Of a stretch of 64,000 bases of DNA, positions 16,619-60,626 are shown in pieces; position 1 is the stretch's first letter, and each line of letters begins with the position of its first letter. Location of the stretch: NCBI GenBank assembly GCA_017470585.1, contig JAFUYI010000009.1, forward strand, positions 954 to 64,953, written 5' to 3'. Source of the stretch: Alphaproteobacteria bacterium (lineage in GTDB: Bacteria; Pseudomonadota; Alphaproteobacteria; RF32; CAG-239). Below the pieces are notes generated by a model that saw only the letters and a list, made by a program, of their open reading frames with translations, was not told where the DNA came from and made no database searches. A program made the position numbers and the translations under genes.

Positions 16619-16873
16619 TTTACATTTAACAATTTCTTATTTATAGTAATCATTGAAGCAAGTGATGATTGCTTTGAGGTTTCACCACCTCTTTGTATTC
16701 GTTTGACCAAGTCGTTAATTGGTATTTTCTGGCTTTATGTAGCCGGAAGCCTGCGGAATATGCTATTCTTTTGAAATACGCAGGACTATTTAATGCAAAT
16801 AGTGGTGAACTTCCGGCTGCACCTTGCAGCTTGTATCGTGTATTAACATGATTTTGCAAAGGAAGTTTTTAAG
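16619..16873 (+). promoter_or_regulatory. Promoter (-35 TTTACA, 17 bp, -10 TATAGT) plus structured leader of paralog 3 (most divergent leader)
   Basis: P1 AAGCAA/TTGCTT, P2 GAGG/CCTC, outer helix gccggaag/cttccggc, P3a CCTGCG/CGCAGG, inner hairpin CTATTT/AAATAG. The terminal hairpin GCTGCA/TGCAGC has a poor U-run. Confidence 0.5.
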
Positions 16874-17389
16874 ATGAATAAATATATTTTAATGCTCGGC
16901 GTTGCAGGAGTTGTTCTTGGCTCCTATTGCGCCATGGCCTCCAACTCTGCCACAATGACCGTTACCGCAACGATTGCCCACGATGTCAGCCTCGGCGGTG
17001 TTACAGAATTAAACGTCGGCACCATAACCGTCAATCCGGCAAGTCACGGCAACTGCCATATAACTTATGATTCCAACGGAACGCTAATAGATGCATACAC
17101 TTGTTCAGCCACTAGTGCCACTCCGGGAACTTTTACCGCCAATATTGCCAACCCTGAAGGCTGCAACGGCACTTCTTATGCCTGTTCGGGGTTAAGAGTA
17201 ACAAACGAAATACTCAACCCTTTTGGCGGGGATAGCGGTGATGATTATTGTCATTTTTATATCACTTATGATTCCGGCAACCGATTTAAGGTCTTTCCTT
17301 ATAATTGCTATATTGAAGATATGTCACAAACAGAGTACGGATTGCATACGCATACCAACGCTTTGACTATATCTTATACGGCAAGCTGA
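16874..17389 (+). CDS. Secreted beta-rich protein, paralog 3 (Cys-rich)
   Basis: 171 aa; MNKYILMLGVAGVVLGSYCAMASNSATMTVTATIAHDVSL...FKVFPYNC...LTISYTAS. Confidence 0.75.
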   Translation: MNKYILMLGVAGVVLGSYCAMASNSATMTVTATIAHDVSLGGVTELNVGTITVNPASHGNCHITYDSNGTLIDAYTCSATSATPGTFTANIANPEGCNGTSYACSGLRVTNEILNPFGGDSGDDYCHFYITYDSGNRFKVFPYNCYIEDMSQTEYGLHTHTNALTISYTAS

Positions 17390-39302: not shown

Positions 39303-41735
39303 TCAGGCAAGATTTAAATATTTTGTAACAAAGTTTTCTTCACCATACTGCTTAATGAGGTCTTCAACCAATAAAACATTCTTACGGCTTGAGTTATAAA
39401 GCTTCAAATACGGTCCCAATCCGCCTAAATTTACATCCAAAATAACCGATTCGCCGGTTGCCGGACGGGAAAGCAGAATAGCGTACGGAAAATCACGATA
39501 CGATTTACCGAACACGAAGTCAATTTCACGCTGATTCAAGTTCCAGTTGGCATAATCTTCCGGTCTTGCTTGCGGGTTACGGAAGAAGATTACGGTTTGG
39601 CATTGACCGCGGATCACCTCTCCCACACCGAGCGAATCGATAATATTCGGTTGTTGGAAAGCACAAAGATATGCCTGTCTTTTTTTACGTCCTTCTTGTA
39701 AACCGATCATAAAGTAATCCCTGAACATCGGGTGTTTAAGCATCGGTGCGGTTTCATCAATCATAATCAAAGACGGCACACCGGTTTCTCCGGTTTCGGA
39801 TTGAATACGGTGCATAATATAGCTGATAACCGCCGGAGCCAAAGTATCATCTTCAAAAATATGCGTAAAGTCAAACGCCATAAACCGTTTGGTATGCAAA
39901 TCAAGGCTATCGCTGGCGGCGTTAAAAATTTTACCGTACTGATCGGGGTTAACCCAGCGATATAGCTCACGGCGCATATTTCCGGTCGGCGAGAAACAGC
40001 TCTTATAAAGGTTGGACATAACGCGTTCTTCAGGGCGCAGATAATCAAACGCCGTCGTAATAGCGCGGGCAATCTCACGTTCGGAAAGCGCATCATCAAC
40101 CATGGTGATTGATTTCATCCACCGCCGCAGGAAAGCCCTGTTATTCGGTGTCGGAGCGGCATCAAACGGATTTAAGGAAACATTTTTCTCATCACCGTCA
40201 AAACCGATATAGGCACCTCCGACTGCACGAGTAAAAATCTCCGCACCCAAGTGACGGTCAAAGAAAAACACTTTCAAATCTTTGTGGCGCATAGCCTGCC
40301 CTGCCAAGAATGTCAAAAGGGTTGTTTTACCTTGTCCGGTAGGTCCGATAATGCAACAGTGTGCAACGGCAGCATCTTCGGAGGAAACATGGAATTGGAA
40401 ACGATACCCCGAACCGGTGGTTGTGCGGAAAGTCGTAATCGCCCCCGGACCCCAGTCGCATTTATTAAAGCCTTCGGCGGGTTTATCAAACGACACTGCC
40501 GCCGTAACCACACGCGACAAATAGCGATAAGTCCGCGGATAGGTGTCGTATGTCGGAAATTGATTGAAAAACGTTGCTTGTGTAACCCATCCTTCTCTGA
40601 CCGGAGTTACACCGAAAAGGCGGCAAATTCTCTGCACTTCGCTTTCGGCAAATTCGATTTCCGCTTTGCTTTTACCTTTTAAGACCAACGAAAGAGAATA
40701 TTCGGTTAACGCCTGATAGTTGGCATCACTATCCTCAATTGAACTCATCGCATAATTATATTGATCAACAACTTCCTGCGAAAAGCTGGTCATACGCGCC
40801 ATGTTGCGCTGCTGAATTAAAAGCGCGCGCGCCGTGGGGCGGTATATCGGCTTAATATTGTGAAGCATTGTAAGTTCGCAATCAATTGCCAACAACGAAA
40901 CAATCATTGATTCGTCCATATAATCTCCGGGAGAACGAATCCCCATGGTTATGGCAAGAGTTTCCTCATCGCCGGAGAAAAATCTAATCATCCCGTTTTC
41001 ACCGGTAAAATGAATATGATCGGCAGTCAGCATCTCGTTTAATTGCGCCCCCTCGGCATGACCGACTTTAGGATCGGGGGTTGACACCGGCGAACAAATC
41101 CGGCTGAAAATATGAAACGGACTGTCAAGAGGTGAGCTGTCCTCACTTTCAAACATAGCACGCACACCGTATTCGCTTAAAGTAGCCAGCAATGTTTGCG
41201 AGGCGTAATTCAAATCTTTTAATGCCTCGGGACGATCGGGAACCGATATAATTATATAGTGCGAGTTACTGTAAACCCTATCAAGAGTTGACTGCCATGT
41301 ATAAGCAACTTTTTCCAAAATTTTATTATCGAAAGTATTTTCGATAACATCGGCAGGAATCCTCTCGCGCAAAGTTATTACCCGCGCCGTAACCTGCAAA
41401 TCGGACATACTGTCGAGCCAAGATTTCCTTGCCTCGGCCATGGAAACATTCTTTTCCTCCGTGGCAAACGCCAAGTCCAAACCCTCAACCTTAAAAACAC
41501 GAGCAAACGAACCGTTATAGCAACGGATGGTCATGCCGTCGGACATCAGTTTATTAAAAGGGAGAAAATCCGCAACTTTCGACTCGTTTGGCTGCGGCAA
41601 TATCGTTCGCCCGAGTTTGGTAATCCACAACCCGGCAAACGCCGCGGCAGAAATAAAACCCAACAATGTTACGATGACTTCTTTGCTGCTTAAACCCTGC
41701 ACAAAGATGTTAAAAAAATCAAAATCAGGGTGCAA
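39303..41735 (-). CDS. virB4: T4SS ATPase VirB4/TrbE/CagE family
   Basis: 810 aa; Walker A IIGPTGQGKTTLL, Walker B ...LIMIDE; N-terminal membrane-associated region. Confidence 0.9.
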   Translation of the reverse strand: MHPDFDFFNIFVQGLSSKEVIVTLLGFISAAAFAGLWITKLGRTILPQPNESKVADFLPFNKLMSDGMTIRCYNGSFARVFKVEGLDLAFATEEKNVSMAEARKSWLDSMSDLQVTARVITLRERIPADVIENTFDNKILEKVAYTWQSTLDRVYSNSHYIIISVPDRPEALKDLNYASQTLLATLSEYGVRAMFESEDSSPLDSPFHIFSRICSPVSTPDPKVGHAEGAQLNEMLTADHIHFTGENGMIRFFSGDEETLAITMGIRSPGDYMDESMIVSLLAIDCELTMLHNIKPIYRPTARALLIQQRNMARMTSFSQEVVDQYNYAMSSIEDSDANYQALTEYSLSLVLKGKSKAEIEFAESEVQRICRLFGVTPVREGWVTQATFFNQFPTYDTYPRTYRYLSRVVTAAVSFDKPAEGFNKCDWGPGAITTFRTTTGSGYRFQFHVSSEDAAVAHCCIIGPTGQGKTTLLTFLAGQAMRHKDLKVFFFDRHLGAEIFTRAVGGAYIGFDGDEKNVSLNPFDAAPTPNNRAFLRRWMKSITMVDDALSEREIARAITTAFDYLRPEERVMSNLYKSCFSPTGNMRRELYRWVNPDQYGKIFNAASDSLDLHTKRFMAFDFTHIFEDDTLAPAVISYIMHRIQSETGETGVPSLIMIDETAPMLKHPMFRDYFMIGLQEGRKKRQAYLCAFQQPNIIDSLGVGEVIRGQCQTVIFFRNPQARPEDYANWNLNQREIDFVFGKSYRDFPYAILLSRPATGESVILDVNLGGLGPYLKLYNSSRKNVLLVEDLIKQYGEENFVTKYLNLA

Positions 41736-42102: not shown

Positions 42103-42368
42103 TTGCCAAGCGAATATTTTTATGTTATTGCTTGTTTGAGGTGAATAATTTTACCTTGAGGTTTCACAGCCTCTTTATATCCGTCAAAGCCGAAACGTAA
42201 TCCGGCTGTTCTGACTTTTATGGTCGGAAGATTGCGAAATAAGGCTTGCCAAATACGCAATACTATTTGATATAAATAGCTGTGAACTTCCGACCACCTC
42301 TAGGAGAACATCTCCCAAAGGTGGTTTCTTTTATTAAAGTTATAAAGAAACTAAAAAAGGAAGTTTTT
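42103..42368 (+). promoter_or_regulatory. Putative promoter plus structured leader of paralog 4 (P1 degenerate)
   Basis: P2 GAGG/CCTC, outer helix ggtcggaag/cttccgacc, P3a ATTGCG/CGCAAT, inner hairpin CTATTT/AAATAG, terminator CCACCT...AGGTGG + tttcttttat, RBS aaggaag. Divergent to virB3. Confidence 0.5.
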
Positions 42369-42854
42369 ATGATGAAAAATTATATTTTAATGCTAGGTAT
42401 TGCCGCGGTGTCCATAGTTTCTTACTGTGCATACGCCAGCAATTCCGCCACAATGACCGTAACCGCAACAATAGCTCATGATGTGAGTTTAACAGTTACA
42501 CGTCAATATAAACTGGGGACAATTACGATTGATCCGAGTCAAACCAGCGGTTCAGGAATAACCACAGGCAACGATGTTAATGGCGGTATAATATCTGTCA
42601 GCGGATATGAAGTTGGTTTATTTACCGCCAATATTCCCAGCGAATATTCTGTTCCCGGACCAGAGCCCGAGGAGGTTTTAAGTATAAGTCCAAGCACCAT
42701 GACAATGGGCGGAATAACATTTAAAGATCCGTTTATTATGTGGTATTCAGGGACAACCTTTGCGGTCGGATATGATAGTATGTCATATACGGGACTTGTA
42801 CCGACTGCGGGAGATTATGAAGACAGCATTAGCATCTCCTATACCGCACCGTAG
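42369..42854 (+). CDS. Secreted beta-rich protein, paralog 4 (no Cys in mature part)
   Basis: 161 aa; MMKNYILMLGIAAVSIVSYCAYASNSATMTVTATIAHDVSL...GLFTANIP...SISISYTAP. Start is ATG at 42369 or 42372. Confidence 0.75.
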   Translation: MMKNYILMLGIAAVSIVSYCAYASNSATMTVTATIAHDVSLTVTRQYKLGTITIDPSQTSGSGITTGNDVNGGIISVSGYEVGLFTANIPSEYSVPGPEPEEVLSISPSTMTMGGITFKDPFIMWYSGTTFAVGYDSMSYTGLVPTAGDYEDSISISYTAP

Positions 42855-42947: not shown

Positions 42948-43361
42948 TTATTCTGCCTGATTATAGTCAAGCAACATTTCCGCCGCTTTGGATAAAAACG
43001 CCGAACGATTGTTGGTAACCTCATCAATTCGCGACATAAGGTCATCATTCATATAAACCGTATATTTGCTAGGCTTTCCGGTTGGAACATATGAAACAAA
43101 TGCAAAAGCGTATTCTTCGTCGTCCGTCCATTCATTCCAATCCTGCCATTCATCTTTTATTTGCCCGATATTGCGCGGTTTTGGCAAAGGTTTGCCTGCC
43201 CGCCTTATATCATCAAGACGAATATTTAATATCTCTATGGCCATTTTATATGCATGATCAATATTTTCGCCACTGGTATAGCAATCCGGAATATCCGGAA
43301 AAACAACACCGACGGAACTTTTTCCCTCTTTGGGTAAGATAAATAATGCCAAGTATTTCAT
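42948..43361 (-). CDS. hicB: Type II antitoxin HicB family (second copy)
   Basis: 137 aa; MKYLALFILPKEGKSSVGVVFPDIPDCYTSGENIDHAYKMAIEILN... Homologous to the 7413-7820 product, with the same WQDW...EW motif. Confidence 0.7.
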   Translation of the reverse strand: MKYLALFILPKEGKSSVGVVFPDIPDCYTSGENIDHAYKMAIEILNIRLDDIRRAGKPLPKPRNIGQIKDEWQDWNEWTDDEEYAFAFVSYVPTGKPSKYTVYMNDDLMSRIDEVTNNRSAFLSKAAEMLLDYNQAE

Positions 43362-43390
43362 CTCAATTTCCTTTCCTTTTGGGGTAAGGC

Positions 43391-43585
43391 TTATTTCAGC
43401 CCCGCCTTCTTCAAAATATTTGTTGCAACTTTGGGATGAACATCGCCCTTATGATACGGAACGGCAATTTTTCCTTCTTTTGTTTCGTGTTCAAATTGGT
43501 AATGACTCCCCTCTGTATTCACTACATACCAACCATCTTTTTTTAATATCTTCATCAGCTTTTCCGCTGTATATCTCACAGGCAT
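43391..43585 (-). CDS. hicA: Type II toxin HicA (intact second copy)
   Basis: Probable start MPVRYTAEKLMKILKKDGWYVVNTEGSHYQFEHETKEGKIAVPYHKGDVHPKVATNILKKAGLK (64 aa) inside the longer ORF 43391-43627. Confidence 0.75.
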   Translation of the reverse strand: MPVRYTAEKLMKILKKDGWYVVNTEGSHYQFEHETKEGKIAVPYHKGDVHPKVATNILKKAGLK

Positions 43586-43674
43586 TTTGCTTTCCCTTTT
43601 AATGCTTATGTTTGTTTTATACCGCAAATTTGCGGTATTGTCAAGTATTTTTATAAAGGCAAAATTTTTTTTGC

Positions 43675-43927
43675 TTTACATAAAAGATTTTTTGTGCTAG
43701 TTTAGACCTGAAGTGAATGAAAAGTCACTTTGAGGTCTGACAGCCTCTTTGATAGTGTCCGACAAGACAAAAAATTGCTTCTAACCATATTATGGGTTGG
43801 AAGGTGAAGGAATAAGGATTGCCAAATACTTCACACTGTTCTATCAAACAGTTGTCAGCTTCCAACCCCCTCGTTTGTTTGCCGAGGGGGTTTTTAGTGA
43901 TAATATATTAAAAAGGAAGTTTAGATA
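43675..43927 (+). promoter_or_regulatory. Promoter (-35 TTTACA, 17 bp, -10 TAGTTT) plus structured leader of paralog 5
   Basis: P1 AAGTGA/TCACTT, P2 GAGG/CCTC, outer helix gggttggaag/cttccaaccc, P3a GTGAAG/CTTCAC, inner hairpin CTGTTC.../...AACAG, clean terminator CCCCTCG/CGAGGGG + T5. Confidence 0.6.
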
Positions 43928-44461
43928 ATGAAAAATTATATTTTAATGCTCGGTGTAGCGGGATTAGCCTTTGGCTCCTATTGCGCATACGCCGACAATT
44001 CCGCCACAATGACCGTTACTGCGACTATCGCACATGATGTTAGCCTAAAGACTACCGGGGACATAAACCTCGGCACAATTACTGTTAATCCGGCTTATAC
44101 AGGATGGACAGATTGGCAATACAGCGATTCGGGAGTAGTCAGTTATATCAACAAAGGTGCGATTATTTCAGCTCCGGATATTACGGTAGGAACTTTTACT
44201 GCCAATATTTCCAACCCCGAAGCTTGCAGTACCGCAAACGATTATTGCGGAGGATTATATCTTGAATCGGATAACGGCGATGATTTTCTCAGTCTTTTTA
44301 CCGAAAGCGGGAGTGACAGTGCTTGCTTTTTTTATATAAAATACAGCGGTGACGGCAATAACTTTAAGGTTTATCCGCGAAATTGCACTATATATGACAT
44401 ATCAAAAGTCACTCCCGATAGACACACCGGTACATTGATAATCAATTATAATGCTTCATAA
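43928..44461 (+). CDS. Secreted beta-rich protein, paralog 5
   Basis: 177 aa; four conserved Cys (EACS...DYCGGL, SACFFYIKY, NCTIY); C-terminus GTLIINYNAS. Confidence 0.8.
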   Translation: MKNYILMLGVAGLAFGSYCAYADNSATMTVTATIAHDVSLKTTGDINLGTITVNPAYTGWTDWQYSDSGVVSYINKGAIISAPDITVGTFTANISNPEACSTANDYCGGLYLESDNGDDFLSLFTESGSDSACFFYIKYSGDGNNFKVYPRNCTIYDISKVTPDRHTGTLIINYNAS

Positions 44462-50715: not shown

Positions 50716-50992
50716 TTGATTTAGAATAAAACTTATGTTATAGTTTATACTGAAGTGAGTGAAAAACCGCTTTGAGGTCTGAAAACCTCGCAATTGACGT
50801 TTATAAAGAAAAACGTAAAAATTCTTCCTGCTATAATGGTCGGAAGGCAAAGAAATAAGAGATACCTCAAATACTTTGCACTGGTTCAATTGTCAGTTTT
50901 CAGCTTCCGACCACCTCGCGGGTTTGAATACCCAAAAGGTGGTTTTCTTTTAATGTTAACAAAAAAAGAAAATTATAAAGGAAGTAAGAAAG
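50716..50992 (+). promoter_or_regulatory. Promoter (-35 TTGATT, 17 bp, -10 TATAGT with upstream TG) plus structured leader of paralog 6
   Basis: P1 AAGTGA/CCGCTT (with U-G wobble), P2 GAGG/CCTC, outer helix ggtcggaag/cttccgacc, P3a GCAAAG/CTTTGC, inner hairpin CTGgttcaattgtCAG, terminator CCACCTcgcgggtttgaatacccaaaAGGTGG + ttttctttt (50911-50952). The last ~88 nt are identical to the paralog 7 leader. Confidence 0.6.
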
Positions 50993-51523
50993 ATGAAAAA
51001 TTATATTTTAATGCTCGGGGTTGCAGGAGTTGCGCTTGGCTCATATTGCGCCTGCGCGGGCAACTCGGCGACAATGACCGTTACCGCCACAATCGCGCAT
51101 GATGTGAGTTTGACCAAAACCGGTGATTTAGACCTTGGCACAATCACCATCAACCCAGCGTATGAGGAAAGCGATACATATTGGAGTTACGGCTATTCGG
51201 GGATAGTCAATTATGAAGGAGCAGTCATTTCTGCCTCCAATGCGACCCTCGGTACTTTTACCGCCAATATCTCCAATCCTTCCGCTTGCAGTAATGCATA
51301 TGAATCTTGCGGAGGTTTGATGGTTTCCGGAAATAACGGAGAGACTATTGACAACTTCTTTGGAGGGAGCGATAATAGCAATTATTGCCAATTTTTTATT
51401 AAGTACAGCGGAGCAGATAATAACTTTAAGGTGTTTCCTAATGAATGTGGTATATATGATGTTTCCAAAGTCACCACCGGCGAACACTCCGGCACTTTGA
51501 CTATATCTTATAATCCTGAATAA
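50993..51523 (+). CDS. Secreted beta-rich protein, paralog 6
   Basis: 176 aa; prototype of the family: signal peptide, NSATMTVTATIAHDVSLTKTGDLDLGTITINPA, GTFTANISNPSACSNAYESCGGL, NYCQFFIKYSG, NFKVFPNECGIYDVSKVTTGEHSGTLTISYNPE. Confidence 0.8.
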   Translation: MKNYILMLGVAGVALGSYCACAGNSATMTVTATIAHDVSLTKTGDLDLGTITINPAYEESDTYWSYGYSGIVNYEGAVISASNATLGTFTANISNPSACSNAYESCGGLMVSGNNGETIDNFFGGSDNSNYCQFFIKYSGADNNFKVFPNECGIYDVSKVTTGEHSGTLTISYNPE

Positions 51524-51540
51524 CAAATTAAAAACGAATC

Positions 51541-51580
51541 GGGCGGAGGGGAAATTTTGTTCTCCGCCCGAAGTTTATTT
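51541..51580 (+). terminator. Rho-independent terminator after paralog 6
   Basis: gggcggaggggaaattttgttctccgcccg + aagtttatttt. Confidence 0.6.
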
Positions 51581-51710
51581 TATTAAGCAAGAAAATTAAC
51601 CTTTTTACCGCCTAATTTTTCCCAAATATCGCCTCCGTAATTAAAAAAAATTTATGTAATTTTAATTTTTATTATGTTATAAAATAATTGTTTTGAAAAA
51701 AGGCTGATTT

Positions 51711-52823
51711 ATGGAAAAAGATCCCTTCAAAGAATATCTTCGCCAATCCGAACCCGGCAAGCGTGATAAGAGTTATGCTTGGAATACCGCTATCGGTTTG
51801 CAAGATGTTGATGGACTAAAGACTTCGGAATACTTAAAAGATACCGCAATCAAAAATATTGAAGGTGACATTACCATTGATGAAGCGCAAACACTGCTTA
51901 ACACCTATTATAAAGAAAACAATCAAAAAAACAAAAAAGACCGAACCGAAGAAGCCGATAAAGTTTCCCTCCGAATTGCAAAGATTTTATCGGAAAAGGC
52001 TTTCAGTTTTTCTGCAAATGAGTATATTTCCATTCATAAGAAACTGTTTGACGGTATCTATGATTATGCTGGCCGCTTTCGCGATTATAATATTACCAAA
52101 AAAGAATGGGTATTAGACGGAGATACCGTTATTTATGGAACAGCCACTGAATTAAAAGCTACATTGGACTACGATATTTCGCAGGAAAAGAAATTTAATT
52201 ATAAAGGTCTGTCCCCTCAAGAGATTATACATCATTTGGCTTTGTTTATTTCCGGATTGTGGCAAATTCATGCTTTTGGCGAAGGCAACACCAGAACAAC
52301 CGCAGTATTTTTTATCAAATACTTGCGAACTCTGGGTTTTGATGTCACAAATGATATTTTTGCTCATAATTCATGGTATTTCAGAAATGCGCTTGTTCGG
52401 GCAAATTATACCGATTTAACAAGAAATATTCATTCAACCACGGAATATTTAGAGTTGTTTTTAGAAAATCTGTTGTTGGGCAAGAATCACAAACTGCTTA
52501 ACCGAATGATGCATATAAGTCATATATTGGATAGAAAAGTAGATATTGAAGCTTCAAAAGTAGATATTCGGGCTTCAAAAGTAGATATTGAATATCTATG
52601 TCGCGAAAGATTACCGAACATCACAACCAAATCTATCCGGCATATTTTGAAGATTTATGAGACATGTAGTAACACCCGACATTTTGGTCGCAGTGAGATT
52701 ATTGAAATCACAAATCTCAAACCCGCTATGGCTTCAAGGCTACTCAAACTTCTTTTAGACAATGGAATCATTAGGCCTATACAGGGCAAAGGTAAAGGTA
52801 AATATATTTTTGCCATTGGATAA
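51711..52823 (+). CDS. Fic/DOC family protein with non-canonical active-site motif and C-terminal wHTH
   Basis: 370 aa; Fic motif region IHAFGEGNTRTTAVF (canonical HPFx[DE]GNGRxxR is degenerate here). A short tandem peptide repeat SKVDIEASKVDIRASKVDIE lies near the C-terminus. Confidence 0.65.
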   Translation: MEKDPFKEYLRQSEPGKRDKSYAWNTAIGLQDVDGLKTSEYLKDTAIKNIEGDITIDEAQTLLNTYYKENNQKNKKDRTEEADKVSLRIAKILSEKAFSFSANEYISIHKKLFDGIYDYAGRFRDYNITKKEWVLDGDTVIYGTATELKATLDYDISQEKKFNYKGLSPQEIIHHLALFISGLWQIHAFGEGNTRTTAVFFIKYLRTLGFDVTNDIFAHNSWYFRNALVRANYTDLTRNIHSTTEYLELFLENLLLGKNHKLLNRMMHISHILDRKVDIEASKVDIRASKVDIEYLCRERLPNITTKSIRHILKIYETCSNTRHFGRSEIIEITNLKPAMASRLLKLLLDNGIIRPIQGKGKGKYIFAIG

Positions 52824-52912
52824 TTTTCGCCATAAACAGACCATCAAAATTGCGGAATGATAACGAAAAAGAACAAAAAACTTAAATTTTTTTTGTAATA
52901 TAAACTTTTTGC

Positions 52913-53188
52913 TTGATTTCGAGTAAAATTTATGTTATAGCTTATACTGAAATGAATAAAAAGTCATTTTGGGGTGTAGGAACCTTTTGTAAAGCGTCAG
53001 CAAAGACGTAAAATTTGCTTTCAGCCGTTGCTATGGTTGGAAGGTGTGGAAATAAGGTTTAGCCGAATACCACGCACTGTACTTTACAACAGTTCCTAAC
53101 TTCCGACCACCTCGCGGGTTTGAATACCCAAAAGGTGGTTTTCTTTTAATGTTAACAAAAAAAGAAAATTATAAAGGAAGTAAAGAAT
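52913..53188 (+). promoter_or_regulatory. Promoter (-35 TTGATT, 17 bp, -10 TATAGC) plus structured leader of paralog 7
   Basis: P1 AAATGA/TCATTT (compensatory relative to AAGTGA/TCACTT), P2 GGGG/CCTT (wobbles), outer helix ggttggaag/cttccgacc, P3a GTGTGG/CCACGCAC, inner hairpin CTGTacttta...cAACAG, terminator CCACCT...AGGTGG + ttttctttt. Confidence 0.6.
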
Positions 53189-53734
53189 ATGAAAAAATAT
53201 ATTTTAATGCTCGGCGTTGCAGGGGTTGCACTTGGTTCTTATTGTGCAATGGCCTCCAATTCTGCCACAATGACCGTTACCGCAACAATAGCCCACGATG
53301 TGAGTTTGAGTGTTACTCAAGATATAGATATGGGAACAATCACTGTCAATCCGGCTGTAACAGATAATACGAAATGGTCTTATAACGAAACCGGTGAACT
53401 TTATAATACTGATGGTATAGGCATCATTTCCGCAGATAATGTTACAGCCGGCATTTTTAGTGCTAACATTGCTAATCCCTCTGCTTGCAATAAGGCATAT
53501 CGTGAATGCGGAGGATTGAGCGTTACCGGAAATACTGTATTCGAAGGCAGAACTTGGTCATCTATTAGTAATCTCTTTGGCGAAAACAATGATAACGGTT
53601 GCGATTTTTTTATTCAGTACAGCGGAACAGAAAACACTTTTAAGGTTTTCCCTTATTCTTGTGGAGCAACTATGTCCACCACTACCATCGGTTCGCATTC
53701 TGGAACTTTAACTATCAGCTACAATCCGGAATAA
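53189..53734 (+). CDS. Secreted beta-rich protein, paralog 7
   Basis: 181 aa; conserved termini and four Cys; variable centre. Confidence 0.8.
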   Translation: MKKYILMLGVAGVALGSYCAMASNSATMTVTATIAHDVSLSVTQDIDMGTITVNPAVTDNTKWSYNETGELYNTDGIGIISADNVTAGIFSANIANPSACNKAYRECGGLSVTGNTVFEGRTWSSISNLFGENNDNGCDFFIQYSGTENTFKVFPYSCGATMSTTTIGSHSGTLTISYNPE

Positions 53735-53754
53735 TAAAACCTCAAATACCTATA

Positions 53755-53789
53755 AAAAGCGTTTTCTTCTGTGGGGAAAACGCTTTTTT
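53755..53789 (+). terminator. Rho-independent terminator after paralog 7
   Basis: aaaagcgttttcttctgtggggaaaacgctttttt. Confidence 0.65.
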
Positions 53790-53838
53790 GGTTGCGGAGG
53801 AAAAAGATTTTTTTTATATTGTCGGCAGAGGATGAAAA

Positions 53839-55143
53839 ATGATTGAGAATATTCCGGAGTTCAGTGTTACGGAAATATCGGCCGCCATTAAAAAGACGGT
53901 TGAGACGATGTTTGCCAGAGTCCGCATTAAAGGCGAGATTTTCGGTTGCAAACGTGCCGACTCGGGGCATTATTATCTTGCCCTAAAAGATGAAAACGCG
54001 ATGATCTCCGCCGTTTGTTGGCGTGGTGTTGCCGCCAAATTCGGGGTTAAACCCGAAGATGGTTTAGAGGTAATCGCCACCGGCAAAATTACCACTTTTG
54101 CCGGCAAAAGTTCCTATCAGCTGGTGATTGAGGATATGGAAATTGCCGGCACCGGCGCGCTGTTAAAACTATTGGAAGAACGCAAATTGCGTTTTGCCAA
54201 TGAGGGATTATTTGATCCCTTGCATAAAAAGCCAATCCCCTATCTGCCCCGTGTCATCGGCGTTGTTACCAGTCCGACCGGAGCCGTCATCCGCGATATT
54301 ATCCATCGGGTAAGCGACAGATTTCCCTGTCGGATTATCGTTTGGCCTACCTTGGTGCAGGGTGACGGTGCCGCCGAGCAGATCGGAGAGGCCATAAAAG
54401 GCTTTAACAGCTTAAAAGAAAACTCTTCTATTCCCCGGCCTGATGTTTTGATTGTGGCACGAGGCGGAGGAAGTTTAGAGGATTTATGGTGTTTTAACGA
54501 GGAAGTTGTAGTCCGTGCCGTCTATGATTCAAAAATACCTATCATCTCGGCAGTCGGACATGAAACCGACACCATGCTTATAGACTACGCCGCCGATGTG
54601 AGAGCACCGACACCGACAGGAGCCGCCGAATTTGCCGTTCCCGTAAAATCGGAATTGCAAGCCAAGATGTTGCTTGCCTCTCCGCGGATGATAAACGCAG
54701 TTTTCCGCCTTTATAACGAAAACAAAAACGTTCTTGAGGGATTGGCGCGCGGTATTCCCGATTTGGAGCAGATTTTGGGCGATAATATCCAAAAATTCGA
54801 TCAGCAAACCGAACGTTTGGAGTTGGCTTTCAAAAATTATCTGACCTTAAAAAACAATGCGCTCGTTTTAAATGAAATTAAACCTTTTTATATTAAAAAC
54901 ACATTGGAACGTTTCTCGCAGGCTTTGGAGTCTTTGTCGGTTCGTTTGCAATCCGTATCCGTGGAAGCAGTATTAAAACGCGGTTTTGCATGGGTTAAAA
55001 ACCAACGCGGACAAACGATTTATAACACCATTGATGCGAAAAAAAGTTCTCTTTTGGCAATAACCTTTGCCGATGGCACAATTAAAACCAGACCGATGGG
55101 AAAAAAGGATGAATTACAAGGCGATTTGTTTGATTTGCTTTAA
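53839..55143 (+). CDS. xseA: Exodeoxyribonuclease VII large subunit
   Basis: 434 aa; N-terminal OB fold (...VRIKGEIFGCKRADSGHYYLALKDENAMISAVCWRG...), catalytic core and helical C-terminus. Confidence 0.9.
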   Translation: MIENIPEFSVTEISAAIKKTVETMFARVRIKGEIFGCKRADSGHYYLALKDENAMISAVCWRGVAAKFGVKPEDGLEVIATGKITTFAGKSSYQLVIEDMEIAGTGALLKLLEERKLRFANEGLFDPLHKKPIPYLPRVIGVVTSPTGAVIRDIIHRVSDRFPCRIIVWPTLVQGDGAAEQIGEAIKGFNSLKENSSIPRPDVLIVARGGGSLEDLWCFNEEVVVRAVYDSKIPIISAVGHETDTMLIDYAADVRAPTPTGAAEFAVPVKSELQAKMLLASPRMINAVFRLYNENKNVLEGLARGIPDLEQILGDNIQKFDQQTERLELAFKNYLTLKNNALVLNEIKPFYIKNTLERFSQALESLSVRLQSVSVEAVLKRGFAWVKNQRGQTIYNTIDAKKSSLLAITFADGTIKTRPMGKKDELQGDLFDLL

Positions 55144-55933
55144 TTTGGCGGTAATTTTTCCGGCATCGGCATTAGAAATTTGCGGCGATATAAAACAGGG
55201 CGAATTACTGGTTTTCAAAGATTTTGCGGACAGTGTCAGCGAATTACGGATTAACTCAAAAAAATACCCGATAACGCAAGACGGCTATGCAATTGCCGCT
55301 ATTTCCCGCGATGAAAAAAAATTGATTATTAAAACCGATGGCAACGCTTTCGAACGCACTTTGGAAGTTGCCCCCACCCGCTGGGATATACAGAAAATCA
55401 ACGGTGTAAATCCCGCCAAAGTAACCCCAGGCAAGGATTTTGCCGATGAGATTGCCCGCGAGCAGAAAGATGTCGCCAAGGCTCTTCAAACCATGCAAAG
55501 AGGTGATTATTGGCGGGAGGGTTTTATTGAACCTCTCAAAGGGCGTATCAGCGGCAATTTCGGCAATCAGCGTATTTTTAACGGTATCAAAAAAAATCCC
55601 CACAGCGGTACGGATATTGCCGCACCGGAGGCAAGCGAGGTTAAGGCTTCCTCTTCGGGAAAAGTCATTTTAAGCGGCAAGAATTATTTTTATACCGGCA
55701 ATATGGTTATCATTGACCACGGACAGGGGCTGCAAACAATTTACGCCCACTTGAAAGAAGCAAAAGTCAATGAGGGCGATGAGGTAAATAAAGGTGATGT
55801 TATCGGACTGGTGGGACATACCGGACGCGCTACGGGACCGCACCTGCATTGGGGTGCCTCACTGAATAATATCCGGTTTCGTCCGCACTCGCTTCTTGAT
55901 ATAAACAATAAAAATTGCAGGAAAATAAAATGA
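55109..55933 (+). CDS. M23 family metallopeptidase (LytM-like)
   Basis: Signal peptide MNYKAICLICFNLAVIFPASA (likely start inside ORF 55067-55933). M23 motifs HSGTDIAA...HTGRATGPHLHWG. Confidence 0.8.
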   Translation: MNYKAICLICFNLAVIFPASALEICGDIKQGELLVFKDFADSVSELRINSKKYPITQDGYAIAAISRDEKKLIIKTDGNAFERTLEVAPTRWDIQKINGVNPAKVTPGKDFADEIAREQKDVAKALQTMQRGDYWREGFIEPLKGRISGNFGNQRIFNGIKKNPHSGTDIAAPEASEVKASSSGKVILSGKNYFYTGNMVIIDHGQGLQTIYAHLKEAKVNEGDEVNKGDVIGLVGHTGRATGPHLHWGASLNNIRFRPHSLLDINNKNCRKIK

Positions 55934-56739
55934 GTTTGTTTCATATTGTAATTTTATCATTGGTTCAAGGTTTAACCGAATTTTTGCCGGTCAGTTCTTC
56001 CGGACACTTGATTTTGCTCTCCAAGTTGAGTTCTTTTCCCGATCAAGGCTTGGAAATGGATATTGCCGTTCATTTCGGCTCCGTTATCGCGGTAATGATT
56101 TATTTTGCCAAAGATATTTGGCGGATTATCAAGGATTTGTTTTCTTCCCGTTTTTTGCCCGATTTTCAAAAATACGGCAACCGTTTATTCTATCTGTTAC
56201 TTATAGGCTCCATACCCGCGGCAATATTCGGTCTTTGGCTTCAAGGTCAGGATATGACTGCTCTTCGTTCCTCTAAAATAATCGGCTGGAATATATTATT
56301 GTTCGGAATTTTGCTTTTTTTCGCCGACAAATACGGCAAAACAGAACGCAAAATTGAAGATATGGGGTATAAAGATGCACTTTTAATCGGTTTAGCGCAA
56401 TGCTTGTCGCTGATCCCCGGAACATCGCGTTCGGGCATTACCATTACAATGAGCCGAATTTTAAAAATCAAACGCCGCGCCGCCGCACAATTTTGTATGT
56501 TGCTGTCTATTCCCACAATTACCGGAGCGGCAATGCTTGTAGGATGGAAGTTATGGCAGGCGGGAACTTTGGATATTGATTTGATAACAAAGGGGGTAAG
56601 TTTTTCGTTTATTGCCTCGATGGCGGCAATCGGAATTATGATGGGATGGCTGAAAATCGGTACATTTATCCCGTTTGTTATTTACCGCATTGTCTTGGGA
56701 GTGGGACTTCTTCTTTACAGTTACGGAATCATCGGCTAA
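55915..56739 (+). CDS. uppP: Undecaprenyl-diphosphate phosphatase
   Basis: 274 aa; BacA/UppP motifs (LVQGLTEFLPVSSSGHL..., PGTSRSG). The start may be at MSLFH (55930). Confidence 0.9.
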   Translation: MQENKMSLFHIVILSLVQGLTEFLPVSSSGHLILLSKLSSFPDQGLEMDIAVHFGSVIAVMIYFAKDIWRIIKDLFSSRFLPDFQKYGNRLFYLLLIGSIPAAIFGLWLQGQDMTALRSSKIIGWNILLFGILLFFADKYGKTERKIEDMGYKDALLIGLAQCLSLIPGTSRSGITITMSRILKIKRRAAAQFCMLLSIPTITGAAMLVGWKLWQAGTLDIDLITKGVSFSFIASMAAIGIMMGWLKIGTFIPFVIYRIVLGVGLLLYSYGIIG

Positions 56740-57188
56740 TACGCCGGATAATCGGTAACAGCGTTATCCTGATTTATTTTTCCTATATAATCAAAATCCT
56801 TTTTCGGATATGATTGCAGATCATAAACCCGATCCCCGCTTTCATAGATTTTGTTTTGAATTTCGTTATTCATTTCCTGCGGGGGCATTTCGCTATCGGA
56901 AGGATTTTGCGGGGAAAACTGATTTATGGCTTGCGGAGATTTTCTTAAATTATTATGCGATGCCGGGACTGCCTCCGGAGGCGGCGTCTGATAATCAACA
57001 ACCGGATAGCCCAAAGGATTGGGGGCATTCAGGGGCTGTTCAATCATAAATTCTTTTTTTGCACCGCTTGGGGTATCGGCTATGCCCAAAACGGTTGTTT
57101 CATCTCCCGATCCTGCTTCGGTTTGCATTAAAACCTCGGCGTGAGCATTAAAAAACATCAAGCATACGATTATAACACAGCGCAGCAT
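56736..57188 (-). CDS. Hypothetical secreted Pro/Gln-rich protein
   Basis: Likely start MLRCVIIVCLMFFNAHAEV (ATG at 57186-57188, RBS aaaggagag) within ORF 56736-57371. No recognised domain. Confidence 0.4.
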   Translation of the reverse strand: MLRCVIIVCLMFFNAHAEVLMQTEAGSGDETTVLGIADTPSGAKKEFMIEQPLNAPNPLGYPVVDYQTPPPEAVPASHNNLRKSPQAINQFSPQNPSDSEMPPQEMNNEIQNKIYESGDRVYDLQSYPKKDFDYIGKINQDNAVTDYPAY

Positions 57189-57235
57189 TTTTTCTCTCCT
57201 TTTTGAAAGAGAATATATGTCGGCAAAATGATTTT

Positions 57236-58564
57236 TCAATATCCGTAATATTTTTGACGGCTGATGAAAAAATAAATACTTGTACTCAAAGCCAAAATCT
57301 CGGCAATAATAATCGCCGCCCATATACCGCCCACTCCGAAAAATGCCGGAATTACCATCACACAGATACATTCAAAAACCAAGGTTCGCAACACGGAAAT
57401 TACCGCCGAAACAATCCCGTTGTTTAAGGCCGTAAAAAATGAAGAAGCAAAAATTGAAAAACCCGCAAACAAAAACGATACGGCATAAATGCGAAATCCC
57501 TCAACGGTAAGTCTAAAAAGCTCATTATTGTTTTGAATAAAAAACGAGGTTAAAAAGGGCGCGAAAAATTCGGCAGATAAAGTCATCAAAATTGCAAAAC
57601 AAAAAATTATTTTCAAATTTTTAACAAAAAGACTGTGCAGTTCCGCATGATTTTTGGCTCCGAAATGAAAACTCGTAATCGGTGCGCTCCCGAAGGCATA
57701 ACCTAAAAAGAGGGCGGCAAAAACAAAGCTCAAATAAGTAATAATGCCGTATGCCGCTACGCCGTTTTCTCCCAAAAAAAGTAACATTTGATAATTATAA
57801 AGCGTGGTAACGACGGCCTGTGAAATAACCGTTACGAACTCGCTTAATCCGTTGGTGCAAATTTTTAAAAGTGAATGCCAATAAAGCGATGTCTTGCCCA
57901 ATCGCAAAGGACTCTTATTGTCAATGCAAAAATAAATCAACGGAATAAGTCCGCCGACCATAATTCCCGCGGAAGTCGCCAGAGCCGCCCCGATAAGCCC
58001 CATATTAAGTTTAACGATAAAAAGGGCGTCCAAAACAATATTGGTCATACCCGAAATAAAAGTAACCGCAAACCCTAATTTCGGTCTTTCCGCCGTAACC
58101 AGCAGGGATTGAAAAGTATATTGCAGCATAAAAAAAGGTATAGCGGGAATAATAATCCGCGAATATTTAAGAGCGGCCGCCAATAACTCCCCGTGTGCGC
58201 CGAATGCCTCCAAAATCGGCTTAATCAGCCAAATTCCGCCAATGGCAATAATAATCCCTAAAATTATTGCCGTATAAATAAGAAGCGAAAAAATCCTTAA
58301 CGCCTTAAACTTTCGCCCCTCGCCCAAAGTTTTGGCAATCAAGGCACTGCCGCCGGAACCGAACATAAAACCGATAGCTCCGAAAATCATAATAAACGGC
58401 CATACCAGATTTATGGCGGCAAACTGGGTAACATCGGTATAATTGGAGATGAACAACCCGTCAACAATGCTGTAAAACGATGTAAAAATCATCATACAGA
58501 TTGACGGAGCAGTAAAGCGCAAAAGCTTGGTGTATGTGAAATGATCCGAAAGCTGAATATTCAT
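57236..58564 (-). CDS. MATE family efflux transporter
   Basis: Twelve-TM MATE-like sequence from MNIQLSDHFTYTKLLRFTAPS.... ORF-track start 58864 is upstream; the ATG at 58562-58564 is the likely true start (~442 aa). Confidence 0.8.
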   Translation of the reverse strand: MNIQLSDHFTYTKLLRFTAPSICMMIFTSFYSIVDGLFISNYTDVTQFAAINLVWPFIMIFGAIGFMFGSGGSALIAKTLGEGRKFKALRIFSLLIYTAIILGIIIAIGGIWLIKPILEAFGAHGELLAAALKYSRIIIPAIPFFMLQYTFQSLLVTAERPKLGFAVTFISGMTNIVLDALFIVKLNMGLIGAALATSAGIMVGGLIPLIYFCIDNKSPLRLGKTSLYWHSLLKICTNGLSEFVTVISQAVVTTLYNYQMLLFLGENGVAAYGIITYLSFVFAALFLGYAFGSAPITSFHFGAKNHAELHSLFVKNLKIIFCFAILMTLSAEFFAPFLTSFFIQNNNELFRLTVEGFRIYAVSFLFAGFSIFASSFFTALNNGIVSAVISVLRTLVFECICVMVIPAFFGVGGIWAAIIIAEILALSTSIYFFISRQKYYGY

Positions 58565-58645
58565 AACAAAAACCTTGAAAAGGTTTATAATCATCGTTTT
58601 ATGACTTGTCAATACCCGTATTTTTGACAATTTAAAACTTTTTGC

Positions 58646-58910
58646 TTGATTTAGAATAAAAATTATGGTACAGTTTTTCTGAAACGGACGGAAAGCCGTT
58701 TTGAGGTCTGATAGCCTCGTAACAACCGTTTGTACCGAAGCGTAAATCGGTATATATCCGATCTTTATGGTTGGAAGGTGTGGAAATAAGGTTAGACCGA
58801 ATACCGCACACTGCTTGTTGTTAGTAGTTATCAGCTTCCAACCACCTCGCGGGCTAAAGCCCAACGGGTGGTTTTCTTTATAAATTTGATAAAAGAAGGA
58901 AGTTTGAATA
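58646..58910 (+). promoter_or_regulatory. Promoter (-35 TTGATT, 17 bp, -10 TACAGT) plus structured leader of paralog 8
   Basis: P1 AAACGG/CCGTTT (fully compensatory), P2 GAGG/CCTC, outer helix ggttggaag/cttccaacc, P3a GTGTG/CACAC, terminator CCACCTcgcgggctaaagcccaacgGGTGG + ttttcttt. Confidence 0.6.
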
Positions 58911-59449
58911 TGAAAAACTATATTTTAATGCTCGGCATTGCCGCGGTTGCTCTTGGCTCATATTGTGCCTATGCCGGAAATTCCGCCACGATGACTGTTA
59001 CTGCCACAATCGCCCATGATGTGAGTTTGACCAAAACCGGCGATTTAGACCTTGGCACAATCACCACCAACCCGGCGTATGATGGAGATGACACAGATTG
59101 GTCGTATGATTATACAGGAAACATTATTTATTATACACAAGGTGCTATTGTGTCAGCTCAAGATACTAGGGTTGGTATGTTTACCGCCAATATTGCAAAT
59201 CCCGCAGATTGTAATGGAATAGATATTCCTTGCGGAGGATTGAGCGTTACAGGAAATATTGGTTACTCCTCCATATATAATCTCTTTGGCGGAAATGATA
59301 ATAGTAATCACTGCGAATTTATCATTAAAGCCAGTGAGCCGGAATATAACTTTGCTGTATTTCCTTTTTCTTGCTCTATAAATGATGTATCAAAAGTCAC
59401 CACTGGCGAACACTCCGGCACTTTGACTATATCTTATAATCCTGAATAA
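58911..59449 (+). CDS. Secreted beta-rich protein, paralog 8
   Basis: 179 aa. The first ~52 aa and last ~20 aa (plus ~35 nt downstream) are near-identical to paralog 6; the centre is unrelated. Confidence 0.8.
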
Positions 59450-59604
59450 CAAATTAAAAACGAATCGGACGGAGAGGAAATTCTCACCTCTCCGCCAAAA
59501 TTTTAAAAATCACCGAATATTATGTGGGTTTTTACAATCTTGGGAACGATTATATATTTTTTTACCGTCTTTTATTTTTATTCAGCAAAGAATTTGCTGT
59601 CAAA

Positions 59605-59692
59605 TTTCCCAAAAATTTGGAAAAAACGCTTTATTTTTCCCAAAAATTTTGTTAGAATCATTTTATCATTAAAAAATTTCCCAAAAATTTGG
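59605..59692 (+). repeat. Three direct repeats of tttcccaaaaatttgg (imperfectly palindromic) ending at an SD (ggagg)
   Basis: Copies at 59605-59620, ~59634-59650 (one base differs) and 59677-59692; the last abuts ggaggtttt-ATG. Confidence 0.5.
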
Positions 59693-59699
59693 AGGTTTT

Positions 59700-59801
59700 A
59701 TGAATTTACCGGTTGAAGAAGTTTTCATTACAGACACATCAAAATCTTACCAATACCACATTTGGCAGAAGGAAGGAAAAATCAGATTAAAGTTACCATA
59801 A
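59700..59801 (+). CDS. Possible 33-aa small ORF (MNLPVEEVFITDTSKSYQYHIWQKEGKIRLKLP) with strong SD
   Basis: ATG 7 nt after GGAGG. Below the ORF-track cut-off. No homology inferable. Confidence 0.2.
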   Translation: MNLPVEEVFITDTSKSYQYHIWQKEGKIRLKLP

Positions 59802-59827
59802 GTTTTAGGTGTTTTGCAAAATTTTGC

Positions 59828-60092
59828 TTTACATAAAAGATTTTTTGTGCTAGTTTATGCTTGAAGTGAATGAAAAGTCACTTTGAGGTGTCGTAACCTC
59901 TCCCAAATTGTCCGACAAGACATAAAAATTGCTTCTAACCGTACTATGGTTGGAAGGTTGGGAAATATAAAGAATACCTGACACTGTTATTTGGGACAGT
60001 TACGAACTTCCAACCACCTCGCGGCTTTAAAGAGCCAAAAGGTGGTTTCTTTTATTAAAGTTATAAAAAAATTAAAAAAGGAAGTTTAGATT
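59828..60092 (+). promoter_or_regulatory. Promoter (-35 TTTACA, 17 bp, -10 TAGTTT) plus structured leader of paralog 9
   Basis: P1 AAGTGA/TCACTT, P2 GAGG/CCTC, outer helix ggttggaag/cttccaacc, inner hairpin CTGTtatttgggACAG, terminator CCACCT...AGGTGG + tttctttt. Confidence 0.6.
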
Positions 60093-60626
60093 ATGAAAAA
60101 TTATATTTTAATGCTCGGCATTGCCGGGGTTGCTCTTGGCAGTTATACTGCTTATGCTTCCAACTCGGCAACGATGAATGTAACCGCCACCATCGCCCAC
60201 GATGTGAGCTTAAACGTTACCGACGACATCGACTTTGGAACCATTACTATCAATCCGGCTGCTCTTCAGGAGGCGAACATACTAACAATTATGTACAATC
60301 ACAACGGAACGATCATGAGTAAAGACACCGGCATTATCAGTGCCACAATGGCCTCTCCGGGAGGATTTACCGCCAATATTCCCAATCCGTCCGCTTGCAG
60401 TGCGGCAAGTGATTCTTGCGGAGGATTAGACTTACCCAACACCAACTCAGGTGAACTTAAGTTCACAGGTGCCACATATTCTTATTGTCAAATGTATATT
60501 AAATATACAGGAAATGCGAATGAGTTTAAAATGGTTCCTGTCGAATTTGCTATTGTTTCCAAAGATATAAATCTCAATGGCGAATATTCAATGGAGGTAA
60601 CCATATCTTACACTCCGGAAAGCTGA
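60093..60626 (+). CDS. Secreted beta-rich protein, paralog 9
   Basis: 177 aa; MKNYILMLGIAGVALGSYTAYASNSATMNVTATIAHDVSL...PSACSAASDSCGGL...YCQMYIKY...VTISYTPES. Confidence 0.8.
   Translation: MKNYILMLGIAGVALGSYTAYASNSATMNVTATIAHDVSLNVTDDIDFGTITINPAALQEANILTIMYNHNGTIMSKDTGIISATMASPGGFTANIPNPSACSAASDSCGGLDLPNTNSGELKFTGATYSYCQMYIKYTGNANEFKMVPVEFAIVSKDINLNGEYSMEVTISYTPES

Follow-up and report, generated by a model that had tools for sequence, protein, structure and literature searches.

The 64-kb stretch of DNA analyzed here, which we call the window (64,000 nucleotides (nt), positions 954 to 64,953 of contig JAFUYI010000009.1 in assembly GCA_017470585.1), derives from an uncultured rumen alphaproteobacterium and carries on its plus strand nine paralogous genes for products of about 157-181 amino acids (aa). 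Each gene lies within a unit having the following layout: a sigma-70-like promoter, a leader of about 240 nt with a terminator hairpin at its end, an AAGGAAG ribosome binding site (RBS), the coding sequence (CDS), and a terminator of its own. All nine copies possess the promoter-like element, the leader, and the RBS, and a check extended to their stop codons and the terminator hairpins downstream; 18 copies situated in other loci have the leader directly upstream of each gene and a match to the hidden Markov model (HMM) of the family that spans the full-length open reading frame (ORF). Three units of the window, copies 6, 7, and 8, share nearly identical tracts embedded in diverged sequence, which very probably arose by recombination or gene conversion between paralogs. 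The features concerned are the following.

50716-51581, plus strand: copy 6 (c6), a complete unit, with the leader at about 50751-50992 and the CDS at 50993-51523 (176 aa)
50716-50744, plus strand: promoter-like element of copy 6, TTGATT-17-TATAGT with a TG extension
51540-51570, plus strand: terminator hairpin of copy 6, with a T-rich run after it
52913-53734, plus strand: copy 7 (c7), leader 52948-53188, CDS 53189-53734 (181 aa); promoter placed by alignment to copy 6
58645-59496, plus strand: copy 8 (c8, IJ689_01535), promoter, leader 58680-58909, CDS 58910-59449 (179 aa), terminator at about 59467-59496
50904-50987, plus strand: tract A, copy-6 side, by sequence identity to copy 7
53100-53183, plus strand: tract A, copy-7 side, by sequence identity to copy 6
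51458-51556, plus strand: tract B, copy-6 side
59384-59482, plus strand: tract B, copy-8 side (repeat family D14)
51068-51167, plus strand: tract C, copy-6 side
58985-59084, plus strand: tract C, copy-8 side

The start of copy 8 is taken at 58910, the mechanical list of ORFs having begun too early, at GTG 58868. Tract A is an uninterrupted identity (84 of 84 nt) between copies 6 and 7, at an offset of 2196. It contains the invariant CTTCC end of a long-range leader helix, the terminator hairpin (50910-50943), the U tract, an A-rich spacer, and the RBS (AAGGAAG, 50978-50984); the whole of it is non-coding, and its terminator loop and A-rich spacer vary in other copies. At its 5' edge the identity falls sharply within the non-coding leader, from 100% to 57-62%, and this edge coincides with the end of the variable part of the long-range helix. 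Since the tract comprises terminator, spacer, and RBS, and starts past the variable part of the helix, the co-varying partners of this helix stay together in each leader. The original prediction had described an identity of about 88 nt at this place: The identity is real, but the coordinates given for copy 6 were one base off and the last 5 nt before the ATG differ.

Tract B unites copies 6 and 8 at the other end of the gene, with 87 of 91 identical positions (51458-51548 vs. 59384-59474) and an exact run of 64 nt, just as the near-identity of about 90 nt predicted for the C-terminus. It takes in the final 22 codons and the stop codon, then the 3' untranslated region (UTR), and enters the 5' arm of the terminator of the gene; similarity reaches about 51556/59482 and breaks off within the terminator hairpin. 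To these two stretches, which had been named from the beginning, a third that had been overlooked must be added: tract C, an N-terminal coding patch of about 100 bases in which copies 6 and 8 are 95-97% identical at an offset of 7917, their synonymous sites being alike too. Copies 6 and 7 moreover agree at 80% of the positions in a promoter segment for which the family median is 38%. The coding cores lying in between, once said to be completely different, are homologous, with nucleotide identities of 52-68%.

Tests for recombination and mosaicism across the family

The comparison that carries most weight is between pairs in the same alignment columns. Copies 6 and 7 are 97% identical in the columns of the 3' leader and RBS, and copies 6 and 8 are 95% identical in those of the C-terminus and 74% in those of the 3' UTR, whereas the other 35 pairs are 35-79%, 21-70%, and 5-43% identical, respectively. 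Given the per-site match frequencies among these other pairs, the observed patterns have probabilities of about 1e-33 (copies 6 and 7) and 1e-41 (copies 6 and 8). A GENECONV-like test, in which the longest run of matches at polymorphic sites is evaluated by column permutation, finds runs of 47 and 48 polymorphic sites with global p<0.0005 among the nine copies, and flags the pairs of copy 9 with copies 1, 5, and 2 as well; extended to 22 units of the same genome, it finds runs of 49 and 57 sites, 30 of the 231 pairs being globally significant. For the nine copies the pairwise homoplasy index (PHI) is significant at p=0.005. A 3SEQ-like triplet walk shows copy 6 tracking copy 7 through 25 informative sites in succession in the 3' leader, and thereafter copy 8 in the N- and C-terminal patches, with p<1e-4 for the ascent and p=0.016 for the descent.

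Could the shared stretches simply be those under the strongest constraint, the leader 3' end, the RBS, and the C-terminal motif being conserved by purifying selection alone? These blocks do belong to the more conserved parts of the family. Yet the other pairs do not reach comparable identity in exactly the same columns, and the identity includes the variable terminator loop, the spacer, and the 3' UTR. The codons are equally telling: The C-terminal peptide GTLTISYNPE is common to copies 6, 7, and 8, but copy 7 encodes it with different codons whereas copies 6 and 8 use identical ones. At positions where copies 6 and 8 have like amino acids, the share of identical codons is 50% in the signal peptide, 85% in alignment columns 31-60, 27% in columns 61-90, and essentially 100% in the last 25 codons, a blocky agreement of 85-100% within the tracts and 27-50% outside them. 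Selection at the protein level is thus insufficient, because copy 7 has the same peptide with other codons, the synonymous agreement comes in blocks, and tract A is non-coding. With the permutation, PHI, and triplet tests all significant, the chance that purifying selection suffices, as the original prediction had allowed in the event of negative tests, is practically negligible, and its principal claim of gene conversion among the family members is sustained by the tests and the blockwise codon agreement together.

The remaining six units of the window, which enter the wider comparison, are listed below.

8172-8863, plus strand: copy 1 (c1), leader 8172-8360, CDS 8390-8863
11646-12358, plus strand: copy 2 (c2), leader followed by CDS 11870-12358
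16654-17389, plus strand: copy 3 (c3), leader followed by CDS 16874-17389; its leader 3' end is the most divergent
42136-42854, plus strand: copy 4 (c4), leader followed by CDS 42369-42854
43709-44461, plus strand: copy 5 (c5), leader followed by CDS 43928-44461
59861-60626, plus strand: copy 9 (c9), leader followed by CDS 60093-60626

When units on other contigs of the same organism are added, and copy 6 is compared with 19 other units altogether, it resolves into at least five segments, each with a different best partner:

Promoter: copy 7, 80%
5' leader: unit L009_p10001, 92%
3' leader: copy 7, 100%
Signal peptide: unit L011_p5154, 96%
N-terminal strand: copy 8, 96%
Core: no close partner, 60-72%
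C-terminus and 3' UTR: copy 8, 98-100%

Copy 7 is a patchwork too, and so is the leader of copy 9, which resembles copies 5, 1, and 4 in turn: The promoter/5' leader segment 59824-59857 is identical to 43671-43704 of copy 5, segment 59925-60054 is 86% identical to 8236-8365 of copy 1 (repeat family D16), and the 3' leader of copy 4 is 79% identical to that of copy 9. Wherever a scan of 22 units with a 60-nt window meets a pair-specific identity of 93% or more, the tract belongs to the block of the promoter, the leader, the signal peptide and N-terminus, or the C-terminus. Among the proteins, too, paralogs with an overall identity of 60-75% have segments of 20-59 aa in which they are identical. 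The core segment common to the relatives P0100 and P0105 was considered as a recent tract but rejected, as the presence of synonymous differences indicates older shared ancestry.

This mosaicism bears on a second alternative, namely a recent duplication of whole genes followed by rapid divergence of their cores under diversifying selection, without any exchange. Copies 6, 7, and 8 lie within 8 kb of each other and have a promoter type in common, and the family does present variable loops on a conserved scaffold. However, divergence is equally high at the synonymous sites of the signal peptide (where half of the codons agree) and in the 5' leader, which adjoins the tract of complete identity; moreover, the best partners change along the unit and some of them are on other contigs. 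We therefore regard such a duplication as highly improbable, and retain recombination between paralogs as the explanation of the tracts.

Several points nevertheless weigh against it. The column-shuffle null ignores the clustering of slowly evolving sites, which is countered only by the comparison of pairs in the same columns; the significance of PHI is moderate, because the sequences are close to saturation; and all the sequence comes from short-read metagenome assemblies. The sample at the DNA level amounts to 22 of at least 83 copies, about a quarter. In the scan of these 22 units no pair-specific tract of 93% identity or more lies in the variable core, the best pair there being 70-90% identical; the proposal to explain the variation of the central regions by conversion consequently finds no backing. 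Finally, no exchange is seen between strains: Locus L015, from sample SAMN15829988 of the same study, is collinear with window positions 43839-64000 and 99.975% identical, and none of its 5 differences in about 20 kb falls within copies 5-9.

Gene conversion had been announced as ongoing, with swapped cassettes to be sought between assemblies. In the short-read assemblies compared here there are none at copies 5-9, where the sequences are identical, and three further pairs of loci across samples are 99.96-99.99% identical; the four samples of this one study contain virtually the same strain, so that the comparison is uninformative on turnover. From the zero differences in copies 5-9 it follows that the tracts are recent relative to the age of the family, exchange on an observable time scale not being demonstrated. 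Single-nucleotide polymorphisms (SNPs) between these nearly identical strains are clustered, with four in 70 bp at the 5' end of a paralog (L009/L010 15630-15699) and four in 26 bp within xseA (window 54248-54273 vs. L015). All of them are transversions or odd changes, and they may be errors of assembly or sequencing. The cluster separating L009 from L010 was rejected as a case of micro-conversion, as its alleles match no sampled paralog and xseA has a like cluster. In the same locus, a called ORF of 162 aa at L009 5321-5809, inside which two of the six between-sample SNPs lie, reads as low-complexity repeats (PLLPFFYLLPYCPF...) and is probably not a real protein.

Since the assemblies are built from short reads, one must ask whether a de Bruijn procedure confronted with more than 80 similar copies mis-joined paralogs or collapsed stretches of them (‘bubble popping’). 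Short contigs do break at the repeats of the family (L002 begins inside tract A, and L014 holds only the Fic-family gene that lies between copies 6 and 7), and the region of copies 8 and 9 is redundant in the NCBI metagenome-assembled genome (MAG): Window positions 58910-60626 are present twice, copy 9 corresponding to IJ689_01540 (by position) and IJ689_07905, with a partial copy 8 (IJ689_07910) on a contig of 5,957 bp. The bin is therefore partly redundant, which matters for copy counts. There is in addition a 636-bp ENA contig encoding a perfect chimera of two parents (P0042), which joins the N-terminal 103 aa or so of P0015 (IJ689_01690) to the C-terminal 75 aa or so of P0056 (IJ689_06940), with its junction in the conserved FTANIPNPSACNT block; this is either a true recombinant allele from another sample or an assembly chimera. 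On the other hand, exact tracts of 64-84 nt would fit within a typical read, and k=141, a value to which contig names (k141_121312) point in two of the assemblies, also exceeds their length, so that their flanks would be linked directly. The assemblies of SAMN15829993 and SAMN15829988 agree base for base across copies 5-9, and the sequence is recovered in other samples. Furthermore, a collapse could lift an identity of about 97% to 100%, but not make a patch of 95-100% on a background of 40-70%. An artefact of this kind is accordingly very unlikely, and recombination within the family continues to be the reading that we prefer.

Proposed mechanism of exchange, the Fic gene, and comparable systems

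How would the exchange operate? The units are autonomous modules of promoter, leader, gene, and terminator, each for a Sec-secreted beta-sandwich protein of about 175 aa, and non-reciprocal homologous recombination between non-allelic copies would leave the near-identical patches as its footprints. Exchange would begin and end in blocks that are conserved family-wide, namely the leader, the signal peptide with the N-terminal strand, the FTANI-NP-C block, and the C-terminal strand, which presumably supply enough exact identity for strand invasion. Each event would overwrite about 35-135 nt of the recipient, and successive events with different partners would turn every unit into a patchwork. 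Behind the mosaic pattern and its statistics there would presumably stand a RecA-type mechanism; a direction of transfer and any selective benefit are likewise presumptive. The demonstrable consequences are a concerted evolution of the regulatory, secretion, and terminal blocks, together with a reshuffling of leaders and ends against the variable cores. Neither a generation of core diversity nor present-day activity is evident from the data. If real, the exchange accounts for the likeness of so many dispersed regulatory leaders and secretion signals.

For the tract between copies 6 and 7 a more particular origin can be envisaged, related to the gene lying between them.

51627-52817, plus strand: Fic-family gene segment, with CDS 51711-52823, between copies 6 and 7

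This segment, including 84 nt upstream, is 85% identical in DNA to L006, a contig of an unrelated metagenome organism, where the homologue sits among resolvase, helicase, and HNH genes with no family gene beside it; close homologues are found also in Elusimicrobia. The segment is thus a recent insert acquired horizontally, because of this identity to a contig that comes from an unrelated organism and lacks family genes. As a synteny anchor the Fic gene failed, being mobile and having its closest homologue in an unrelated mobile-element context. Its arrival, for instance as part of a circular element integrating by a single crossover in the leader/5' coding block, could have left two hybrid family copies flanking the insert, in which case tract A would be a by-product of the insertion and not of generic conversion between paralogs. 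The layout of family copy, Fic gene, and family copy occurs twice, at 50993-53734 of the window and at 10001-12600 of L009, and the two longest exact matches among 190 pairs of units are precisely between the copies flanking a Fic gene: 135 nt for L009_p10001/L009_p12064 and 84 nt for copies 6 and 7, both within the block formed by the 3' leader and the 5' coding sequence. One leader type is common to the upstream copies of both loci, and a second to the downstream ones; copies 8 and 9, a closer pair (1.2 kb) with no Fic gene between them, are without a long tract. Against this model, there are two cases only; the two Fic proteins are unrelated (24% identity); and the foreign homologue of the Fic gene in the window has no adjoining family gene. 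Besides, the process would still be homologous recombination within the family, and the tracts between copies 6 and 8 would go unexplained. A link between the acquisition of Fic genes and recombination in the family block is possible on the strength of these two cases, but that it accounts for tract A in place of conversion between paralogs seems unlikely.

Conversion among paralogs of surface proteins is a classic route to concerted evolution and to antigenic or adhesive diversity, and its recurrence is unsurprising. What is unusual here is the substrate: an unannotated expanded family in an uncultured rumen alphaproteobacterium, with each unit behind a covarying leader RNA that has no Rfam family. 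Among the systems in which conversion is known, Neisseria pilE/pilS and Borrelia vlsE are similar to Anaplasma msp2/p44. In all three there is one expression site served by promoterless silent donor cassettes, in contrast with the nine of nine copies that have a promoter-like element in the window and the 27 of 27 units examined that have a leader. Segmental gene conversion of msp2/p44 (PMC11946796, PMC2789410) has much in common with the present case, from the alphaproteobacterial host with a small genome to the approximately 100 copies, the conserved ends, the variable center, and the short segmental mosaic tracts; unlike that type, however, the family studied here has no recent tract in the variable center (22 units, about a quarter of the copies).

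A closer parallel is offered by the outer-membrane-protein paralogs babA, babB, and babC of Helicobacter pylori, which swap 5' and 3' segments by intragenomic gene conversion (PMC4552749). These too are complete paralogous genes, each at its own locus, in which the middle diverges while the 5' and 3' regions are conserved, and bab 5' conversion tracts move regulatory features between paralogs, making chimeras (PMC4552749). The traits that characterize bab/sab-type systems, namely full-length paralogs at separate loci, conserved ends, and supported mosaic tracts, are all found in our family. The differences are that there are three bab loci and at least 83 copies here, that the folds are unrelated (an outer-membrane adhesin vs. 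a small secreted beta-sandwich), that bab genes are without a structured RNA leader, and that bab chimeras have been seen directly between isolates, the case for exchange here being built within one genome. Because every copy is expression-competent, as judged from its sequence, the mechanism is closest to the conversion among expressed paralogs of the bab type and is not of the silent-cassette type.

The leader RNA and the secreted protein family

The larger interest of these units lies in the undescribed expanded family and its covarying leader RNA. A nucleotide profile search (nhmmer) recovers a single structured leader RNA of about 165-195 nt directly upstream of each of 27 family genes and nowhere else. 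Its copies in the window are at the following positions, with more in loci L003-L018.

50751-50946, plus strand: leader RNA of copy 6
52948-53142, plus strand: leader RNA of copy 7
58680-58875, plus strand: leader RNA of copy 8
8172-8360, plus strand: leader RNA of copy 1
11646-11837, plus strand: leader RNA of copy 2
16654-16828, plus strand: leader RNA of copy 3
42136-42329, plus strand: leader RNA of copy 4
43709-43894, plus strand: leader RNA of copy 5
59861-60050, plus strand: leader RNA of copy 9

RNAalifold resolves 19 aligned leaders into six helices, comprising a 5' hairpin, two long-range helices that close an internal domain of about 100 nt, two inner hairpins, and the terminator hairpin, after which comes the U tract. 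Covariation is extensive, with 49 pairs and 98% of cells paired (38-50% in slid controls), and 163 compensatory double changes as compared with 15-25 in the same controls; none of 500 shuffles reached the observed values. The folding z-score of the copy 6 leader is -5.6. The terminator hairpin (AACCACCTCGCGGG...CCCAAAAGGTGGTT) and U tract are found between the structured domain and the RBS in 18 of the 19 leaders; a simple terminator scan missed the hairpin because its loop exceeds 8 nt. For an invariant GAGGU there are three rival pairing partners, namely a local ACCUC, the ACUUC within the long-range helix, and the ACCUC of the terminator arm, which suggests a switch between folds. The leader is a candidate for a new cis-regulatory RNA, riboswitch or attenuator, and more than 25 diverged copies from one or two genomes constitute a natural set for defining it.

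No Rfam family reaches its gathering threshold for the leaders. The nearest is sRNA-Xcc1 (RF02221), with 34.1, 27.9, and 25.4 bits against a gathering score of 53; three of the nine leaders align end-to-end to its 87-nt model (the stem GGYYGGAAG/CTTCCRRCC and two hairpins), but the leader is much larger and its best-supported fold has different long-range helices. Published copies of sRNA-Xcc1 lie in integron cassettes, upstream of symE, whereas the leaders here are always upstream of a gene of the secreted-protein family. The assignment was rejected in view of the sub-threshold score and the different genomic context. The pattern of the leader has no match in JGI metagenomes or IMG/VR.

A divergent sub-family of proteins starting with MTNKTFLILLL (184-189 aa; L007 528-1097 and, on the minus strand, L018 15541-16095) was also observed. 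Its leaders, which are among the 27 recovered, score 135-154 bits while the protein similarity is weak; the leader is therefore better conserved than the protein.

As for the extent of the protein family, a word-indexed search found 232 relatives. Among the best 120 of these (clusters at 90% identity), 83 come from one rumen MAG, ‘Alphaproteobacteria bacterium’, with locus tags from IJ689_00080 to IJ689_07975, and a few others from two related rumen MAGs. The MAG thus has at least 83 distinct copies, or roughly 5% of its genes, if about 1,600 genes are deduced from a locus-tag step of five. An exhaustive HMM search of 1.84 billion cluster representatives returned 76 matches only; the coding pattern has no match in JGI metagenomes; and a scan of GTDB genomes found three loci only, in a different species (RGIG4925) and none of them syntenic with the window. 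In a relative whose XseA is 76% identical, xseA, an M23 peptidase gene, and uppP form the same neighborhood without family genes, from which it follows that the expansion is lineage-specific.

In the proteins a Sec signal peptide, which ends in A-x-A, precedes a mature N-terminus that hardly varies (NSATMTVTATIAHDVSL, its hydrophobic residues alternating). Four cysteines and the C-terminal strand are conserved too, and the variable loops of the proteins are borne by a conserved scaffold. Neither Pfam nor NCBIfam contains a family that matches the nine copies, and a profile search found nothing among the sequences of PDB. AlphaFold predicts a confident beta-sandwich, with a mean predicted local distance difference test (pLDDT) score of 84 and values above 90 in the core; the placement of the invariant N-terminal peptide in this model is poor. 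The best fold match in PDB is the chaperone-usher subunit Caf1, a weak one (probability 0.8, E=0.24, template modeling (TM) scores 0.44/0.56). None of the nine copies matches spore coat protein U (SCPU, PF05229) above its gathering score, and a distant relative, P0300, reaches 16.8 bits, below the cut-off of 22.4.

Resemblance to SCPU/Caf1 pilins includes the Sec signal peptide, a small immunoglobulin-like beta-sandwich, conserved cysteines, and the conserved N-terminus, modeled at low confidence as a donor strand would be. Unlike these pilins, the family has no Pfam or NCBIfam match, its fold match is weak, and its copies are dispersed singly and not within a fimbrial operon. No chaperone or usher gene is present in the window or in loci L001-L018, the genome having been surveyed in those loci only, where the neighbors are housekeeping, Fic, HicAB, and type IV secretion genes. 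It is reasonable to hypothesize that the protein is a pilin-like subunit whose N-terminus resembles a donor strand, membership of the pilin family not being established.

One can go further and suppose that the shared patches are a side-effect of a larger, lineage-restricted system of autonomous units encoding variable pilin-like secreted proteins, each gated by a leader with a terminator, in which recombination would keep leaders and assembly signals uniform while re-assorting the cores. We put this forward tentatively, as somewhat less than an even bet. If true, it would provide a repertoire of co-regulated or individually switchable surface subunits, and hence a candidate variable surface or pilus-like repertoire in a little-known lineage of gut commensals.

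With respect to their neighborhood, the copies are dispersed singly among housekeeping genes (leuS, holA, xseA, uppP, a MATE transporter gene, comEC, and uvrB) and lie also near a type IV secretion cluster. This cluster, at 18439-29875 (minus strand) and 39303-41735, has unusual giant components: a TrbI/VirB10-like protein of 1438 aa fused to beta-flower repeats, and a protein of 1839 aa with at least 17 beta-flower, DUF3659, and RHS repeats, the DNA of which has a periodicity of 153 nt. It also holds VirB4 and a CagX/VirB9-like protein. A HicB/HicA toxin-antitoxin pair is situated between copies 4 and 5, at 42948-43585 on the minus strand.

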